A DNA stretch of 37,977 nucleotides from Actinomycetota bacterium (lineage in GTDB: Bacteria; Actinomycetota; Actinomycetes; S36-B12), in NCBI GenBank assembly GCA_002737125.1, contig NSHP01000001.1, positions 1 to 37,977 on the forward strand, in the 5' to 3' direction. Shown in pieces: positions 1,955-33,170 of the stretch. Below the pieces are notes generated by a model. That model was given only the letters and a program-made list of their open reading frames with translations, was not told the origin of the DNA and did no database searches. The position numbers and the translations under genes are program-made. Each line of letters opens with the position of its first letter. Position 1 is the stretch's first letter.

Positions 1955-3648
1955 CAATGCTCAGCGACCGCGTCGTTTCGTCGGATCAGGGACCGCAATT
2001 ACCGCAGCGCAAGAAAAAGAGCCCCGGCTTGATGGTGGTGTCTTGGTTGACCTCAACCGACCACAAGGTGATCGGTTATATGTACCTAATCCTGGCGACA
2101 TTTTGGTTCTTCGCTGCTGGTGCGATGGCATTGGTTGTCCGAGCCGAGCTCGCCATCCCGGGGCTGCAATTCGTTTCACTCGAGCAGTACAACCAGCTGT
2201 TCACGATGCACGGGACAATCATGTTGTTCTTGTTCGCAACCCCGCTGTTCGTCGGCTACGCGAACGTCATCATGCCGCTGCAGATCGGCTCACCTGACGT
2301 CGCCTTCCCACGCCTCAACATGTTGGGATTCTGGCTTTTTGCCTTCGGCGGCATGGTCGTGGCGGCGGGTTTCATTACCCCTGGTGGCGCCGCCGCCTTT
2401 GGGTGGTTCGCCTACGCACCGCTCAGCAACGCTTTTTACTCACCCGAGGTAGGGGGCGACCTGTGGTTGCTGGGGTTGGCGATGGGCGGGCTAGGTACCA
2501 TCCTCGGTTCTGTCAACTTCGTGACAACCATTTTCTGTATGAGGGCTCCCGGTATGACCATGTTCCGGATGCCTATTTTCACCTGGACGATTTTTACCAC
2601 CAGCGTGCTGGCTCTGCTTGCTTTCCCGGTATTGGCCGCTGCCCTTGCACTTGCCTTCATTGACCGTAATTATGGGGCGGTGGTGTTCGCACCGGAAAAC
2701 GGTGGAGCCATGCTGTGGGAGCACCTTTTCTGGTTCTTCGGGCACCCGGAAGTCTACATTTTGGCTTTGCCTTTCTTTGGTATCGCCAGCGAAATCATCC
2801 CGGTCTTTTCACGTAAGCCGGTCTTTGGATACAAAGGCTTGATCTACGCAACTTTGGGGATCGGCGCCCTATCGATGGCGGTGTGGGCACATCACCTTTA
2901 TGTCACCGGGTCGGTTTATCTGCCATTCTTTGCTTTCATGACGATGCTGATCGCGGTGCCAACGGGTGTCAAATTCTTTAACTGGATTGGCACGATGTGG
3001 CGCGGATCGGTCTCATTTGATACCCCGATGCTCTGGACCATGGGCTTCATGTTCACGTTCTTATTCGGTGGGCTCACCGGCATCATCTTGTCGGCGCCCC
3101 CCCTTGACTTCCACCTTTCAGACAGCTATTTCGTTGTTGCTCATTTTCACTACACCGTCTTTGGAACCGTGGTGTTCATGTTCTTCGCGGGGCTGTACTT
3201 CTGGTGGCCAAAAATGACCGGCAAAATGCTTAATGAACGCCTGGGCAAGATCCATTTTTGGCTGCTTTTTATTGGTTTCCAGACGACTTTCTTGGTGCAG
3301 CACTGGCTGGGTGTACAAGGGATGCCACGGCGGTACGGTGACTACCTGCCCTCGGATGGTTTCTCAACCCTCAATGCGGTTTCTACCGTGGGAGCAGCAA
3401 TTTTGGGTATTTCAACGCTTTTCTTCATCTGGAATGTAATTAAGACTTCTCGCACTGCGCCGATGGTTGGTGTTGATGACCCTTGGGGTTGGGGTGGTTC
3501 CCTCGAGTGGGCAACTTCATGTCCGCCACCGCGACACAACTTTGTCTCGATTCCGAAGATCCGGTCTGAGCGTCCCGCATTTGATTTGCATCACCCAGAA
3601 CTGGCGATCACTACTCAGCAGCCTGCGGTCGAAGGAATAAAGTCGTGA
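1951..3648 (+). CDS. ctaD: Cytochrome c oxidase subunit I
   Basis: 565 aa polytopic protein with haem-copper oxidase signatures ([28 protein letters not shown]). Confidence 0.97.
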
Positions 3649-29260: not shown

Positions 29261-31126
29261 CTAGATAATGCGAATAATTACTGAACTGCCCTTTGGCAGC
29301 ATAGTGCCAGCCGGTGGGTCTTGCGAGTAGACGCGATTTAGCGGTGTCGCGGCGGCCTCGAGGACTTTCGGTTGGAGACCAAGGCCCTTAAGCACACTAA
29401 TGGCCTTGTTTTTCGGTAGGTCAATGAGACTTGGTACCTCAACCGGAGGTGGTCCCTTCGAGACAACGAGTTCGACCGCGGTGCCGGAAGAAGCGACGGT
29501 GCCCGCGGTCGGGCGGATCGCAATCACCAGGCCCTCGGCGATTTTCTCCGAATACTTTTCCTTCGTTGTCACGAGGAGGCCAAGATCGGTAAGGGCGCTC
29601 GTCGCGACTTGGGTTTTTTTGCCCACGACCTGGGGGATAGTTACGGGCTTAGGCCCTTTGGATACGGCAATATCCACGCTCGTGCCGGGCTTGACTTCAG
29701 TACCAATCTTTGGAGAAGTACCTGCTACGGCAGCGGCCGGCACCTGATCGTCGAAAACCTCGGTGGTCGAGCCAATTACCAGGTCCGCGGAGGTGATGGC
29801 CGCCGTCGCTTCGGTCACTGAAAGCCCTTGGACATCAGGTATCACGTAACGTTCTGGGCCTTTTGACACGATGGCGCCGACCGCACCTCCTTCGCGCACA
29901 CCGTCACCGGGCGCCGGGTCACTACTGATAACTAGATCCAAGGGAACGTCTTCGCTGAATTGTTCTTCAGTAATAACGAGAGACAATCCGACATCCAATA
30001 GTGACGCCTTTGCCGCTGCCTTGGACTGGCCAACGATATTTGGAGTAGGCACCGATTTACCGGTGGCGAGCAGCCACCCGCCAATGCCAGCGCCGAGCAC
30101 TACCATCGCAATGACGAGTGCAATCCATGGCCCTTTTCGACTCCGACCGCGGTGCGAGGTGGCGGTTGGTGGCAGCGATGTCGGATTGGGTGCCACCGGC
30201 TGCCCGGCGGCAAGTCGAGCCGCTACAGATGCGTCGACCACCACGGTGTCGTGTGATTCGACGAATGGCCTAGGTGGGGGCAGCATTGCCCGGATTCGCT
30301 TTACGTCTGCGAGAAACTCACTTGCTTGTTGGTAACGCAAATTGGCATCGCGCCGAGTGGCACGCACAACTAGTGCATCGATCTCAGGTGGGACAGTCGA
30401 GCGAATTGATGACGGTGCCGGAACGTCATGGTTGACATGGGCGTAGGCGACCGACAGCGGACTATCACCAGCATGTGGCACTTGGCCGGTGACCATTTCG
30501 AAGAGCAGAATTCCGGCCGCATAAAGATCTGAGCGTTCGTCGGCTTCACCGCGCTCGACCTGCTCAGGTGAAAGATAGGCGACGGTACCCATAATTAACC
30601 CTTGGGTGGCGCTCGTATTTGAAGTCGATACCGCCCTAGCTAAACCAAAATCTGCCACTTTGACGCGGCCGTCATCGGCAAGCAGTACGTTCTCGGGTTT
30701 GATGTCGCGGTGTACGAAGCCCGCTGCATGCGCGGCCGCCAGCCCTTCAAGTACGGGATCAAGAATGACGAGTGCCTGCTCCGGTGTCAAGGGGCCGTAG
30801 TCGCGCATCACATCGCGTAAGGTGCGCCCCGGTACCATCTCCATGGCCAAATAGATGAGTCCGTCGGCGTGCCCTTGATCGTAGACCGCGACCACGTGGG
30901 GGTGCGAAAGTCGTGCAGCCGATTTCGCCTCTCGCTCAAAGCGGGCGACGAAATCCGGGTCTTCAGCTAGGTGTCGGTGCATCACTTTAAGTGCGACGAT
31001 TCGGTCAAGGCGCAGGTCAACCGCCTCATAGACGGTGGCCATACCACCTCTGGCTAAGCGAGCGCGCACCAAATATCGCCCATCAATAGTCTGCCCGACT
31101 AATGGGTTCGGTACAGACGCCTCCAC
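29261..31126 (-). CDS. Ser/Thr protein kinase with a TM helix and four extracellular PASTA repeats (PknB-type architecture)
   Basis: Hanks kinase motifs (GGMATVYEA, VALKVM, HRDIKPENVL, DFGLA, GTVAYLSPE), TM helix WIALVIAMVVLGAGIGGWLLA, and then 4 repeats of ~65 aa ending in SKGP. Confidence 0.93.
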   Translation of the reverse strand: MEASVPNPLVGQTIDGRYLVRARLARGGMATVYEAVDLRLDRIVALKVMHRHLAEDPDFVARFEREAKSAARLSHPHVVAVYDQGHADGLIYLAMEMVPGRTLRDVMRDYGPLTPEQALVILDPVLEGLAAAHAAGFVHRDIKPENVLLADDGRVKVADFGLARAVSTSNTSATQGLIMGTVAYLSPEQVERGEADERSDLYAAGILLFEMVTGQVPHAGDSPLSVAYAHVNHDVPAPSSIRSTVPPEIDALVVRATRRDANLRYQQASEFLADVKRIRAMLPPPRPFVESHDTVVVDASVAARLAAGQPVAPNPTSLPPTATSHRGRSRKGPWIALVIAMVVLGAGIGGWLLATGKSVPTPNIVGQSKAAAKASLLDVGLSLVITEEQFSEDVPLDLVISSDPAPGDGVREGGAVGAIVSKGPERYVIPDVQGLSVTEATAAITSADLVIGSTTEVFDDQVPAAAVAGTSPKIGTEVKPGTSVDIAVSKGPKPVTIPQVVGKKTQVATSALTDLGLLVTTKEKYSEKIAEGLVIAIRPTAGTVASSGTAVELVVSKGPPPVEVPSLIDLPKNKAISVLKGLGLQPKVLEAAATPLNRVYSQDPPAGTMLPKGSSVIIRII

Positions 31127-31195
31127 CTTGCGATTCTAGGTACGCCCGCTGCGCCGGTGCTGTTGCCACGCCTGCCGGGGTTGGCTTAGTGACAA

Positions 31196-31723
31196 CTAAT
31201 GCTCCAGCAATTGCAAAACTGCCAACAGCCGGTCGCTAACGGGGCCGTCAATTCGGTACACGGTGATACCGGCTGGTTCCAAGGTCTCGCGCACGACTTC
31301 GCCGATCAGGGCATCAACCTGGGCCCGATATTCGGGACCATCTCGCTGGTCGCCATCGGGCTCCCACGGGATATCGGTGCCACACCAAATTAAAGTTCCG
31401 TACGTCCTGGCGTGCAGCGTGGCCGATTCAAGTAAGGAATGCTCATTGAAGTAGGCCATGCTGTAGATCGCGGTCATGAGGGCTGCCGGGTCGCACACCA
31501 CCAGTGTTTGCGGATCGATACCCGCTAAGGCGGTGGCTTCGGCCGCCATTTGAGTCCCCATGATTCCCGCTTGCTCGAGGGCGGTGGGTGCGCGCCCCAT
31601 GGAGACCACGAATTCGCGTAAGTACTCAGGCACCAAAACGGCATCAAGGCGGTCACATAGCGCCTTTGCGAGCGTGGTTTTCCCGGTGCATTCACCACCG
31701 AGTAAGCCAATGGTTTTTATCAT
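31196..31723 (-). CDS. NadR-type P-loop kinase (similar to the ribosylnicotinamide-kinase domain of NadR; AAA_28-like)
   Basis: IGLLGGECTGKTTLAKAL, PEYLREFV, VVCDPAALMT, and W..DG.QRDG all parallel the NadR RNK domain. ATGA overlap with the upstream transporter gene. Confidence 0.8.
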   Translation of the reverse strand: MIKTIGLLGGECTGKTTLAKALCDRLDAVLVPEYLREFVVSMGRAPTALEQAGIMGTQMAAEATALAGIDPQTLVVCDPAALMTAIYSMAYFNEHSLLESATLHARTYGTLIWCGTDIPWEPDGDQRDGPEYRAQVDALIGEVVRETLEPAGITVYRIDGPVSDRLLAVLQLLEH

Positions 31724-32325
31724 GCAGAAACCGAGGTAACTTGCGGCTCACGTTTGGCGAGCCAACTGCGTAATCCGATTACCGCCATAATGATTAAGAC
31801 TGCATAGAACAACGAGGTGAACCAGAGATTTTGGGTGGCGTAGAGAACCGCTCCCACCACATTCACTACTATCCAAAGCACCCAGGAATCCGCGTATTCA
31901 CGAACCATCAACACCTGTGCCACGACGCTTCCGACAAAGACGAAAGTATCGGGCCACGGTGCCGGGTCACCGATTGCCGCTAGCACCGGTACGAGTGCGA
32001 GCCAGGCGGCCAGGGAGCCACTCAGTAGAATTAGGCGAGTGCGATTACTTACCGTGCTGGGGACGATGGATTTGGGACCCCACCCAAACCAGCCCCAAAT
32101 TGCCGCAGCGATGAAGACCAATTGCAATGCCGCGGTGCCATAGAGCGCGTACTCCCACAGTAACCAGCCATAAAGTGCGCTGGATAGGAAATAGAATGGC
32201 CACGCCCATCTGGTTCCGCGAATCGCTAGGCCTATCCCGATAAGCGCAGTGATTACGGCAAGTAGCTCGAGCACGGTGACGTCATAGTTCCAGGCGCTGA
32301 AAGCCACGTTCATAAATATCGACAT
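31720..32325 (-). CDS. PnuC-family vitamin transporter. The THI-box leader suggests the thiamine-type PnuT.
   Basis: 201 aa with ~7 TM helices and duplicated Trp-rich motifs (IWGWFGW, VIGLRSW) typical of the NMN-transporter/Pnu family. It lies immediately downstream of a TPP riboswitch. Confidence 0.85.
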   Translation of the reverse strand: MSIFMNVAFSAWNYDVTVLELLAVITALIGIGLAIRGTRWAWPFYFLSSALYGWLLWEYALYGTAALQLVFIAAAIWGWFGWGPKSIVPSTVSNRTRLILLSGSLAAWLALVPVLAAIGDPAPWPDTFVFVGSVVAQVLMVREYADSWVLWIVVNVVGAVLYATQNLWFTSLFYAVLIIMAVIGLRSWLAKREPQVTSVSA

Positions 32326-32330
32326 TTGGC

Positions 32331-32425
32331 TCCTCCCTTCGCCGGCATTACCCGGACAGGTTCGAACGGTCGGCGACGCCGTGCTGTCGCCCTCTCAGCT
32401 CCATTAGGCAGGAGCTCCCGTGCGT
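32331..32425 (-). promoter_or_regulatory. TPP (thiamine pyrophosphate, THI-box) riboswitch in the 5' leader of the PnuC-family gene
   Basis: Minus-strand RNA: ACGGGAGCUCCUGCCUAAUGGAGCUGAGAGGGCGACAGCACGGCGUCGCCGACCGUUCGAACCUGUCCGGGUAAUGCCGGCGAAGGGAGGAGCCAAAUG. It contains the hallmark CUGAGA and ACCUG-N-CCGGGUAAUGCCGGCGAAGGGA boxes. There is an AGCUCC/GGAGCU stem and an extra GGCGAC/GUCGCC hairpin. The 3' end overlaps the SD (GGGAGGAG) 4 nt from ATG 32325. Confidence 0.88.
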
Positions 32426-32448
32426 GTTTAGTTGTGTTACGAGAGTAT

Positions 32449-32796
32449 ATGACCGTGCCGGCAAATTTGTCATATGTAGGGATACTTGTTTTCGTATTAG
32501 CTGGCAGTGCATGGCTGGAGGTAACGTGTCGAACCCGGGTCTTCATCCGGGCTAAGCGGTTGGCCCTCAGCATTGTTCCTGCGGTAGTTTTGTTCTTCAT
32601 TTGGGACGCTTACGCAATCGCTAACGGGCACTGGTGGTTTGCTGCCGATCGAGTTCTTGGTTGGTACCTACCAGGTGGGGTACCGGTTGATGAAGTGTTG
32701 TTTTTCATCGTTATTCCGATTGCCGCAATTTTGACTTTGGAAGCCGTGCGAGCTGTCAAGGGATGGAATGTCGGCGATGAGGACGGCGCACCATGA
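32449..32796 (+). CDS. crtYc: Lycopene cyclase domain protein (heterodimeric cyclase subunit, CrtYc-like)
   Basis: ~115 aa with 3 TM helices and the PVDEVLFF motif (PxE[E/D]xxFF). ATG 32449 is preferred, because the track's 32326 start would run antisense through the riboswitch. Confidence 0.8.
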   Translation: MTVPANLSYVGILVFVLAGSAWLEVTCRTRVFIRAKRLALSIVPAVVLFFIWDAYAIANGHWWFAADRVLGWYLPGGVPVDEVLFFIVIPIAAILTLEAVRAVKGWNVGDEDGAP

Positions 32797-33170
32797 CATA
32801 TACGCAACTTGGTGTTCTGGCTGTTATTCTCGCAGTCGCACTTGACCTCTTCCTCCTCCGCACCCACCTGGTTACGCGCAAAGTCTTCTGGGTGTCATAT
32901 GCCATCACCGTGTTTTTCCAGCTGATTACCAATGGCATGTTCACCGGGTTTGGGATTGTTCGTTACCACGAGGACGCTATTATTGGCGGAAGTTCACCCG
33001 AGTTTGGCCCGCCGCCGTTTATCGGCGATGGCAGGTTGGTTTTTGCGCCGGTAGAGGATTTGCTATTTGGGTTCGCCCTTGTGCTGATGACGCTGGTTTG
33101 TTGGGTATGGCTCGGAAGAAATGGCGTGCAACGAAAACCAAAGGCCGGTCCACCTATTTGGCGGCGTTAG
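32793..33170 (+). CDS. crtYd: Lycopene cyclase domain protein (second subunit, CrtYd-like)
   Basis: 125 aa membrane protein with the PVEDLLFGF motif and a 4-nt overlap with crtYc. Confidence 0.8.
   Translation: MTYTQLGVLAVILAVALDLFLLRTHLVTRKVFWVSYAITVFFQLITNGMFTGFGIVRYHEDAIIGGSSPEFGPPPFIGDGRLVFAPVEDLLFGFALVLMTLVCWVWLGRNGVQRKPKAGPPIWRR

Follow-up and report, generated by a model that had tools for sequence, protein, structure and literature searches.

The DNA analysed here, called the window below, is a stretch of 37,977 bases from an Actinomycetota bacterium (contig NSHP01000001.1), and all positions are counted from its first letter, in this analysis as in an earlier note that had been made from the letters alone. 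Its minus strand carries, from 5' to 3', a thiamine pyrophosphate (TPP) riboswitch, a gene for a transporter of the Pnu family (pnu) and a gene for a small stand-alone P-loop kinase. Judged from sequence and context, these elements probably make up a TPP-repressed operon for the salvage of thiamine, in which the trapping of the imported vitamin would be the most likely function of the kinase. The features of the locus are the following:

32444..32473, minus strand: promoter-like site, ATGACA-18 nucleotides (nt)-TATACT, 10/12 consensus matches
32316..32431, minus strand: TPP riboswitch aptamer (THI element), RF00059, 63.5 bits
32332..32336, minus strand: Shine-Dalgarno (SD) sequence GGAGG of pnu, fused to the invariant AGGGA of the aptamer
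31720..32325, minus strand: Pnu-family facilitator of 201 amino acids (aa), PF04973, predicted PnuT-like thiamine transporter
31720..31723, minus strand: ATGA overlap of pnu stop and kinase start, putative translational coupling
31196..31723, minus strand: stand-alone P-loop kinase of 175 aa with NadR-like fold (ribosylnicotinamide kinase domain), PF13521, predicted thiamine kinase
32449-32796 and 32793-33170, plus strand: divergent lycopene-cyclase-domain genes, TIGR03462

Riboswitch, transporter and kinase of the window

The THI-box that the earlier note had reported on the minus strand was recovered by the Rfam scan at 32316-32431 (-), where RF00059 matched over model positions 1-105 of 105 with 63.5 bits against a gathering score of 54.3 (E 2.4e-10). 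It is the sole gathering-level Rfam match across the whole window, and the strings CUGAGA and ACCUGUCCGGGUAAUGCCGGCGAAGGGA named in that note are both found in the sequence. The 3' end of the aptamer does overlap the SD sequence of pnu, since GGAGG comes straight after AGGGA and stands 6 nt ahead of the ATG at 32325. This layout is shared by all 13 actinobacterial leaders that were aligned, in which GGGAGG (GGAAGG in the metagenome locus L147) occupies the same position at the aptamer 3' end and the start codon follows 6-8 nt on. The fold of this alignment predicts helices P2, P3, P3a and P4/P5, with most pairs invariant and one compensatory pair (CG in 9 leaders, GC in 4); P1 was not recovered. 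No intrinsic-terminator-like site was detected in 30900-32800. We infer from this arrangement that the riboswitch acts on the initiation of pnu translation by sequestering the SD sequence, and that this control would be passed to the kinase via the ATGA overlap.

A P1 helix pairing CUCUC (32441-32445) with the SD region, as drawn by single-sequence minimum free energy folding, found no support in the alignment fold and was set aside. As the latter lacks this pairing and the promoter-like site may put CUCUC outside the transcript, no specific P1 helix is claimed. The promoter-like site at 32444-32473 lies just 5' of the aptamer, a suggestive position that is not significant (1 site found versus 1.1 expected by chance). 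No other such site was found for the pnu operon, and the start codon of the divergent lycopene-cyclase gene (crtYc) falls inside it, which would imply overlapping divergent promoters.

The 201-aa open reading frame had been assigned to the Pnu family on sight, and the expected Pfam match was obtained: PF04973 (NMN_transporter) scored 142.7 bits against a gathering score of 27.3, over profile positions 2-174 of 175. The best solved structure in a sequence search is PnuC (4qtn, E 2e-7), the nicotinamide riboside (NR) transporter of Neisseria mucosa, to which the window Pnu is 27% identical; its identity reaches 51-57% with a second actinobacterial group and 32-39% with proteobacterial members. 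In a comparison that took in PnuC 4qtn as the sole characterised Pnu protein and as outgroup, the kinase-linked Pnu proteins formed one clade. The family motif WxxW(x)3D/N of transmembrane helix 6 is met in the window as WVLWIVVN. This motif was defined in work on PnuT of Shewanella woodyi, in which its residue D166 proved essential for thiamine binding (PMC5749112). The corresponding residue is Asn in every TPP-linked Pnu protein that was examined. Since the NR-specific PnuC has Asn there too, the position is uninformative on the substrate in this clade, and the D/N residue was dropped as a specificity marker. The NCBIfam equivalog model for PnuC (TIGR01528, cutoff 42.45) gave 79.3 bits on the window Pnu. 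It gave 58-79 bits on every TPP-linked Pnu protein tested (window 31720-32325; L080 2394-2978; L120 3869-4441; L057 2355-2975), so that automatic annotation names probable thiamine transporters as NR transporters.

The 175-aa open reading frame matched PF13521 (AAA_28) with 80.7 bits against a gathering score of 27, over profile positions 2-164 of 164. Its only other similarity was to the ribosylnicotinamide kinase (RNK) part of the NadR models, far under their cutoffs (TIGR01526, 48.6 bits versus 341; NF005988, 23.3 versus 201), and it consists of a single domain, with no nicotinamide mononucleotide (NMN) adenylyltransferase domain as in NadR. A sequence search of the PDB returned NadR only, and weakly (E 0.0045). 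The AlphaFold2 model, built on an alignment of 25 sequences, has a mean pLDDT of 94.9 and a pTM of 0.90, and among its PDB matches Foldseek places the NadR RNK domain first (8x7f; query-normalised TM score 0.84, rmsd 2.3 Å, 22% identity), followed by thymidylate kinases at TM scores of 0.6-0.7 and by the other NadR entries 1lw7 and 6gye. The resemblance to the NadR RNK domain that had been noticed in the letters is borne out by the motifs GGECTGKTTL, EYLREFV and PWEPDG, by the AAA_28 match and by the fold. Invariant residues of the family alignment include G9, E11, C12 and K15 of Walker A and the Walker B aspartate D78, and a PW.(P/A)D..QRDG segment is also seen. In a neighbour-joining tree the kinase sits on a long branch apart from NadR. 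As it is without the adenylyltransferase domain, misses the curated cutoffs and branches separately, it is not a NadR orthologue but, by its modelled fold, a stand-alone RNK-like P-loop kinase.

Profile and fold searches gave no sequence or fold match between the kinase and the known thiamine kinases ThiK, ThiN/Tnr3 and ThiL; if its function is the phosphorylation of thiamine, the enzyme would therefore be analogous and not homologous to them. It has no NCBIfam model, and its public names are "ATP-binding protein", "AAA family ATPase", "nicotinamide riboside kinase" (JGI) or of the "NadR type" kind. The Walker A motif reads GxEC(T/S)GK, with a cysteine that all 25 aligned sequences share and that 135/161 family members have, against GGESSGKS in NadR. 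As a marker that would separate thiamine-type (Cys) from NR-type (Ser) kinases it was abandoned, given that the kinase of L120, which has EST, is TPP-linked and that many unlinked actinobacterial members have ES(T/S).

As had been claimed, the pnu stop overlaps the kinase start (ATGA, 31720-31723). The same 4-nt overlap is found in 29 of 50 further pnu-kinase pairs from both phyla in which such pairs occur (30/51 with the window), and the gap is at most 14 nt in all but one of the 50, counts in which choosing the start codon nearest to the pnu stop favours small gaps. The pair with a large gap (97 nt) is that of L076. A long hairpin lies there between pnu and kinase (L076 2607-2689), with sub-threshold matches to microRNA models; it is probably a repetitive palindromic element.

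Linkage of the kinase family to thiamine genes

A scan of the genomes of 185,579 species with the family alignment yielded 417 loci; the analysis continued with the best 80 (L001-L080), mostly from freshwater actinobacterial metagenome-assembled genomes (MAGs; Nanopelagicales, acSTL and similar). In Rfam scans of all 454 kb of these loci, TPP riboswitches alone reached the gathering score. RF00059 lies directly 5' of pnu in L001-L010, the close relatives of the window, and was also recorded in L079 (Rhodoferax). In four other loci (L024, L035, L054 and L057), at about 50% identity, pnu abuts the kinase and RF00059 scores 47.5-49 bits (E about 1e-6) 5' of pnu, while L147, from the metagenome set described below, has a weak TPP match directly 5' of pnu. 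With the window included, a TPP element stands directly 5' of pnu in 16/16 actinobacterial pnu-kinase pairs (11 at gathering score, 4 at 47.5-49 bits, 1 weak), which is the THI-element linkage expected of a PnuT. The window Pnu is thus predicted, from its sequence family and its setting, to be a PnuT-like transporter with thiamine as its presumed substrate. In the kinase tree, the two pnu-linked actinobacterial clades group together and are not scattered.

The linkage extends to a proteobacterial branch, in which a receptor often takes part. In L079, the riboswitch is followed by the gene of a TonB-dependent receptor, the stop of which abuts the kinase. A metagenome scan seeded with betaproteobacterial kinases supplied 80 more loci (L081-L160), whose genes were mapped by tblastn. 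Riboswitches were mapped with a regular-expression pre-screen, then with Rfam, then with a covariance model made from 28 diverse confirmed hits; a model made from the actinobacterial TPP hits and one proteobacterial sequence had been abandoned, as the latter aligned badly. The Rfam gathering score was reached in 24/40 metagenome loci scanned, and the 28-hit model added 13 loci and also recovered a riboswitch 3' end cut at the edge of L080. A TPP element hence stands beside the kinase in 37/80 metagenome loci, a raw frequency that is qualified below, and many of the others are short fragments. The arrangements are these:

Arrangement A: TPP riboswitch, TonB receptor, kinase; 11 loci
Arrangement B: TPP riboswitch, TonB receptor, pnu, kinase; 4 loci and L080, cut at the locus edge
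Arrangement C: pnu, kinase, TPP riboswitch, TonB receptor; 9 loci and 4 on truncated contigs
Arrangement D1: kinase, TPP riboswitch, ThiM-ThiE-ThiD; L113 and 3 similar loci
Arrangement D2: kinase, TPP riboswitch, thiamine ATP-binding cassette (ABC) importer; L111 and 2 similar loci

The thiamine genes of the last two types are identified beyond their NCBIfam cutoffs, in L113 by NF006830 (306.7 bits), TIGR00693 (210.5) and TIGR00097 (318.9) and in L111 by TIGR01254 for the substrate-binding protein (317.5 bits versus a cutoff of 93.4). Where a locus includes the 5' region of a TonB receptor-(pnu)-kinase operon completely, a THI-box is always present (15/15 loci). TPP riboswitches were the only riboswitch family in about 0.9 Mb of loci scanned, with no NAD riboswitch among them, and no NAD gene was seen among the neighbours examined in about 160 loci; the association with NAD metabolism that is typical of NadR was not encountered. 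By estimate rather than by computation, a genome has a handful of TPP riboswitches, so that the less than 1 Mb scanned should give about one by chance. The earlier note had named, as a finding that would refute its proposal, that the kinase clade is never linked to THI elements in other genomes; the opposite is found, in 16/16 actinobacterial pairs, in 37/80 metagenome loci and in five arrangements.

Proposed function and competing explanations

Transport by the facilitator PnuT has the thiamine gradient as its sole driving force and excludes thiamine monophosphate (TMP) and TPP, so that accumulation needs phosphorylation in the cytoplasm, and the idea that Pnu genes lie beside cognate kinases has already been published (PMC5749112). 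The acI Actinobacteria are thiamine auxotrophs that have pnuC-like genes behind THI-boxes and lack nearly all known enzymes of de novo synthesis and salvage (PMC5301498). In Bacteroidetes, a single operon of the order TPP riboswitch-OMthi-pnuT-tnr3 is usual (PMC5613172). Against this background, the window operon could work as follows. At low TPP, the aptamer would be unliganded and the SD sequence at its 3' end accessible, so that Pnu is translated, and the kinase with it via the ATGA overlap. Thiamine would diffuse inward through the Pnu channel, and the kinase, with ATP, would phosphorylate its hydroxyethyl group, most likely giving TMP. As this product would not be exported by Pnu, uptake would be driven by metabolic trapping, and ThiL would convert TMP to TPP. 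At high TPP, the ligand-bound aptamer would fold over the SD sequence and the synthesis of both proteins would stop. Such a reaction is chemically plausible, as NR and thiamine share a cationic N-heterocycle and a primary alcohol and the transporter partner would have made the same change of substrate.

The riboswitch, the family membership of both proteins, the overlap of their genes, the modelled fold of the kinase and the ties of its whole family to TPP riboswitches and thiamine genes are directly established here, and we regard a thiamine-related operon as very likely. That the kinase phosphorylates thiamine itself is a step further, for which substrate and product are read from context, and we consider it reasonably probable. 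In the best-supported interpretation, the kinase would fill in Actinomycetota and Betaproteobacteria the role that Tnr3/ThiN has beside pnuT in Bacteroidetes, by non-orthologous replacement. Whether the GxEC(T/S)GK stand-alone RNK-like kinases are as a whole an unrecognised thiamine kinase family seems to us evenly balanced. Such a family would supply the thiamine-phosphorylating step that is missing in many Burkholderiales and in the genome-streamlined Actinomycetota of fresh water (acI/Nanopelagicales and their relatives), and would have diverged from the NR system alongside its transporter, from PnuC/RNK to PnuT/thiamine kinase.

Several observations weigh against a thiamine-trapping kinase. 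The modelled P-loop fold is equally compatible with the phosphorylation of a phosphate (TMP to TPP). The window motif WxxWxxxN, with Asn in the place of D166, is that of the NR transporter PnuC of N. mucosa. In most Nanopelagicales-like loci (L011-L075, about 60), neither pnu nor a riboswitch is found within 3 kb of the kinase, and the adjacency seen in the window's clade could come from insertion of riboswitch and pnu beside a resident kinase gene. Arrangements C and D place the kinase upstream of the riboswitch, where it is clustered with thiamine genes and not TPP-regulated, and the pnu-kinase pairs of L076, L077, L125, L141, L154 and L160 show no TPP element in the available DNA. Finally, choosing the metagenome loci on their similarity to a TPP-linked kinase inflates the raw linkage frequency (37/80), and the weight is carried by the diversity of the arrangements. 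The uptake-and-trapping module with a NadR-like kinase that the earlier note had put forward is supported by these data, through the TPP linkage and the NadR-RNK-like fold, with thiamine as a substrate proposed from context; the notion of a kinase "recruited under TPP control" fits only some lineages, given the roughly 60 loci in which pnu and riboswitch are absent.

Part of this evidence would suit a thiamine-related kinase with another substrate, either TMP (as a ThiL analogue) or a precursor or analogue such as hydroxymethylpyrimidine (HMP) or hydroxyethylthiazole, a compound that Pnu might then import. The fold includes nucleoside-monophosphate kinases, with thymidylate kinases as the next-best structural matches; the gene adjoins thiM-thiE-thiD salvage operons, whose product is TMP; and its position outside riboswitch control in arrangements C and D is what a constitutive last-step enzyme might have. 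We nevertheless hold this to be unlikely. Pnu facilitators need the imported vitamin itself to be phosphorylated and PnuT carries neither TMP nor TPP (PMC5749112), and no gene partners the kinase as tightly or as often as pnu, through a 4-nt overlap in many pairs. A kinase for HMP or the thiazole would moreover be redundant in the thiMED loci, where ThiM and ThiD are already present, and the closest structure is an alcohol (nucleoside) kinase with a TM score of 0.84, versus 0.6-0.7 for the nucleoside-monophosphate kinases.

Two other explanations take the kinase out of thiamine metabolism, at least in the window. The neighbourhood could be incidental, a riboswitch-pnuT cassette having landed upstream of a resident kinase of other function, as the roughly 60 Nanopelagicales-like loci that keep the order lycopene-cyclase genes, kinase, PknB without pnu or riboswitch might suggest; overlapping genes are also frequent in streamlined genomes, which makes ATGA by itself a weak sign of functional coupling. 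This appears improbable, since the same kinase family is tied to TPP riboswitches, receptors, importers and salvage genes in five arrangements of a different phylum, both phyla have pnu-kinase pairs with the 4-nt overlap and the two pnu-linked actinobacterial kinase clades cluster together. An unlinked kinase can, besides, still serve a pnuT located elsewhere, as acI genomes have THI-box pnuT genes elsewhere (PMC5301498). The databases, for their part, would name the genes a salvage pair for NR, a PnuC with a stand-alone RNK that is a true NR kinase. The PnuC equivalog score (79.3 bits versus 42.45), the JGI label "nicotinamide riboside kinase" on homologues, the NadR RNK domains as closest solved relatives and the terminal N of the Pnu motif, as in PnuC of N. 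mucosa, all point that way. Yet TPP control of an NR system would have no rationale, although it is kept in 16/16 actinobacterial pairs; thiamine genes are frequent in about 160 loci in which no NAD riboswitch or gene was found; the kinase, at 48.6 bits versus 341 on the NadR model and 22% identity to NadR, stands on its long separate branch; and between the transporter and PnuC of N. mucosa the identity is only 27%. We deem an NR pair very improbable and retain thiamine as the probable substrate.

Relation to known systems and minor observations

The closest functional parallel is the operon of Bacteroidetes (PMC5613172), which likewise places a TPP riboswitch over a Pnu-type thiamine facilitator followed by a cytoplasmic thiamine-phosphorylating enzyme (a predicted one in our case), and arrangement B of the proteobacterial branch repeats its order of TonB receptor, pnu and kinase, with the kinase in the place of Tnr3. 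The systems differ in that a P-loop PF13521 kinase stands here instead of Tnr3/ThiN, with TMP and not TPP as the expected product, and in that the actinobacterial version has no outer-membrane receptor. With PnuC-NadR of Haemophilus, Salmonella and Lactococcus (PMC7221760), the window locus shares a Pnu facilitator and an RNK-fold kinase, that is, facilitated diffusion followed by phosphorylation, and each substrate (NR there, thiamine as proposed here) is a vitamin with a cationic N-heterocycle and a primary alcohol. The kinase, in contrast, has no NMN-adenylyltransferase or helix-turn-helix domain and shares about 22% identity with NadR; the regulator is a TPP riboswitch rather than NadR, NiaR, NrtR or an NAD+ riboswitch; and the neighbours belong to thiamine, not NAD, metabolism. 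PnuT of S. woodyi (PMC5749112) is of the same family, with the WxxW(x)3D/N motif and the expected TPP-riboswitch locus and trapping kinase, but has the essential Asp166 where the window Pnu has Asn. As for the pnuC-like genes behind THI elements in acI (PMC5301498), they too come from freshwater Actinomycetota and a gene annotated as pnuC was read as PnuT, but the paper makes no mention of a kinase partner, whereas here the transporter is coupled to a candidate for the missing salvage enzyme.

ThiK (EC 2.7.1.89) catalyses the conversion of thiamine to TMP that we propose here. This enzyme has an aminoglycoside-phosphotransferase-like fold, ThiN/Tnr3 a thiamine pyrophosphokinase fold and ThiL a PurM-like fold. 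None of them is related to the kinase in sequence or fold, and a confirmed function would make this a case of non-orthologous displacement. While earlier work has reported THI-box pnuC-like genes from freshwater Actinobacteria (PMC5301498), the NadR-RNK-like kinase as partner in a Pnu and trapping-kinase module under a vitamin riboswitch is probably new, as is the thiamine kinase family that it implies. Full-text literature searches found no description of a PF13521 kinase of this type as PnuT partner or thiamine-linked enzyme, an earlier mention being possible in Rodionov et al. 2002 or Jaehme & Slotboom 2015.

In lakes and oceans, thiamine is a vitamin that is both limiting and traded, and auxotrophy for it is found in the most abundant Actinobacteria of fresh water. 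The known gene content of acI leaves the trapping and activation of imported thiamine unexplained, a gap that this widespread kinase would close if our reading is true. Thiamine-phosphorylating enzymes would then have a fourth family, unrelated in structure to the other three, and the pair would be a clean case of a transporter and a kinase that switched substrate together. Recognition of the kinase would also correct a systematic misannotation (the NCBI PnuC equivalog and the JGI "nicotinamide riboside kinase") that points to NAD metabolism, and improve the prediction of vitamin auxotrophy from metagenomes.

The 123-bp control region that had been described as shared with divergent crtYc/Yd genes was confirmed on the assumption that ATG 32449 is the first cyclase start, and the genes in question encode lycopene-cyclase-domain proteins (TIGR03462). 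The riboswitch takes up nearly all of this gap. The cyclase genes are followed by crtB-like, crtI and polyprenyl-synthase genes, and a gene for a PknB-type PASTA kinase is found downstream of the 175-aa kinase; the rest of the window, of housekeeping content, contains no other thiamine or NAD gene. In the roughly 60 related loci without pnu, the kinase has its slot (about 3001-3520) between the lycopene-cyclase genes and the PknB-type PASTA kinase, and the window's clade differs only by the riboswitch and pnu inserted between cyclase genes and kinase. The MAG records of L001, L004, L022, L023, L029 and L036 are titled "Bifidobacterium breve". The loci L001 and L004 are 91-98% identical to the Nanopelagicales/acSTL-type genes of the window, and the other four are more distant with the same actinobacterial synteny; the taxonomy of these records looks wrong.

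In the proteobacterial branch, the Undibacterium-type pairs of L141 (3851-5016) and L160 (3908-5010) lack a TPP element for 4.5 kb in both directions, have a Walker A motif with ESSGK and the Pnu motif WxxWxxxD, and could be a branch that is differently regulated or has another substrate. A search with the L141 kinase returned only Undibacterium and other Burkholderiales and did not reach the Shewanella pnuT locus (SO2713-SO2715). In Shewanella oneidensis, SO2714 is flanked by the TPP-regulated receptor SO2715 and by pnuT (SO2713). In TonB-receptor operons, the genes that follow the kinase (enoyl-CoA hydratase, phosphoenolpyruvate carboxylase and others) have no relation to thiamine. Immediately upstream of the kinase, many Burkholderiales-like loci have serS (L090, L093, L105, L107, L113, L122 and L135; TIGR00414, 525.6 bits in L113), with or without a TPP-controlled thi operon to follow, and enolase stands upstream instead in L077, L148, L151 and L152. 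A group II intron catalytic domain lies downstream of thiM-thiE in L096 (5364-5439, minus strand; 41.8 bits versus a gathering score of 40), and in two loci of arrangement C a tRNA gene stands directly 5' of pnu (L127 2030-2102; L158 1672-1744).

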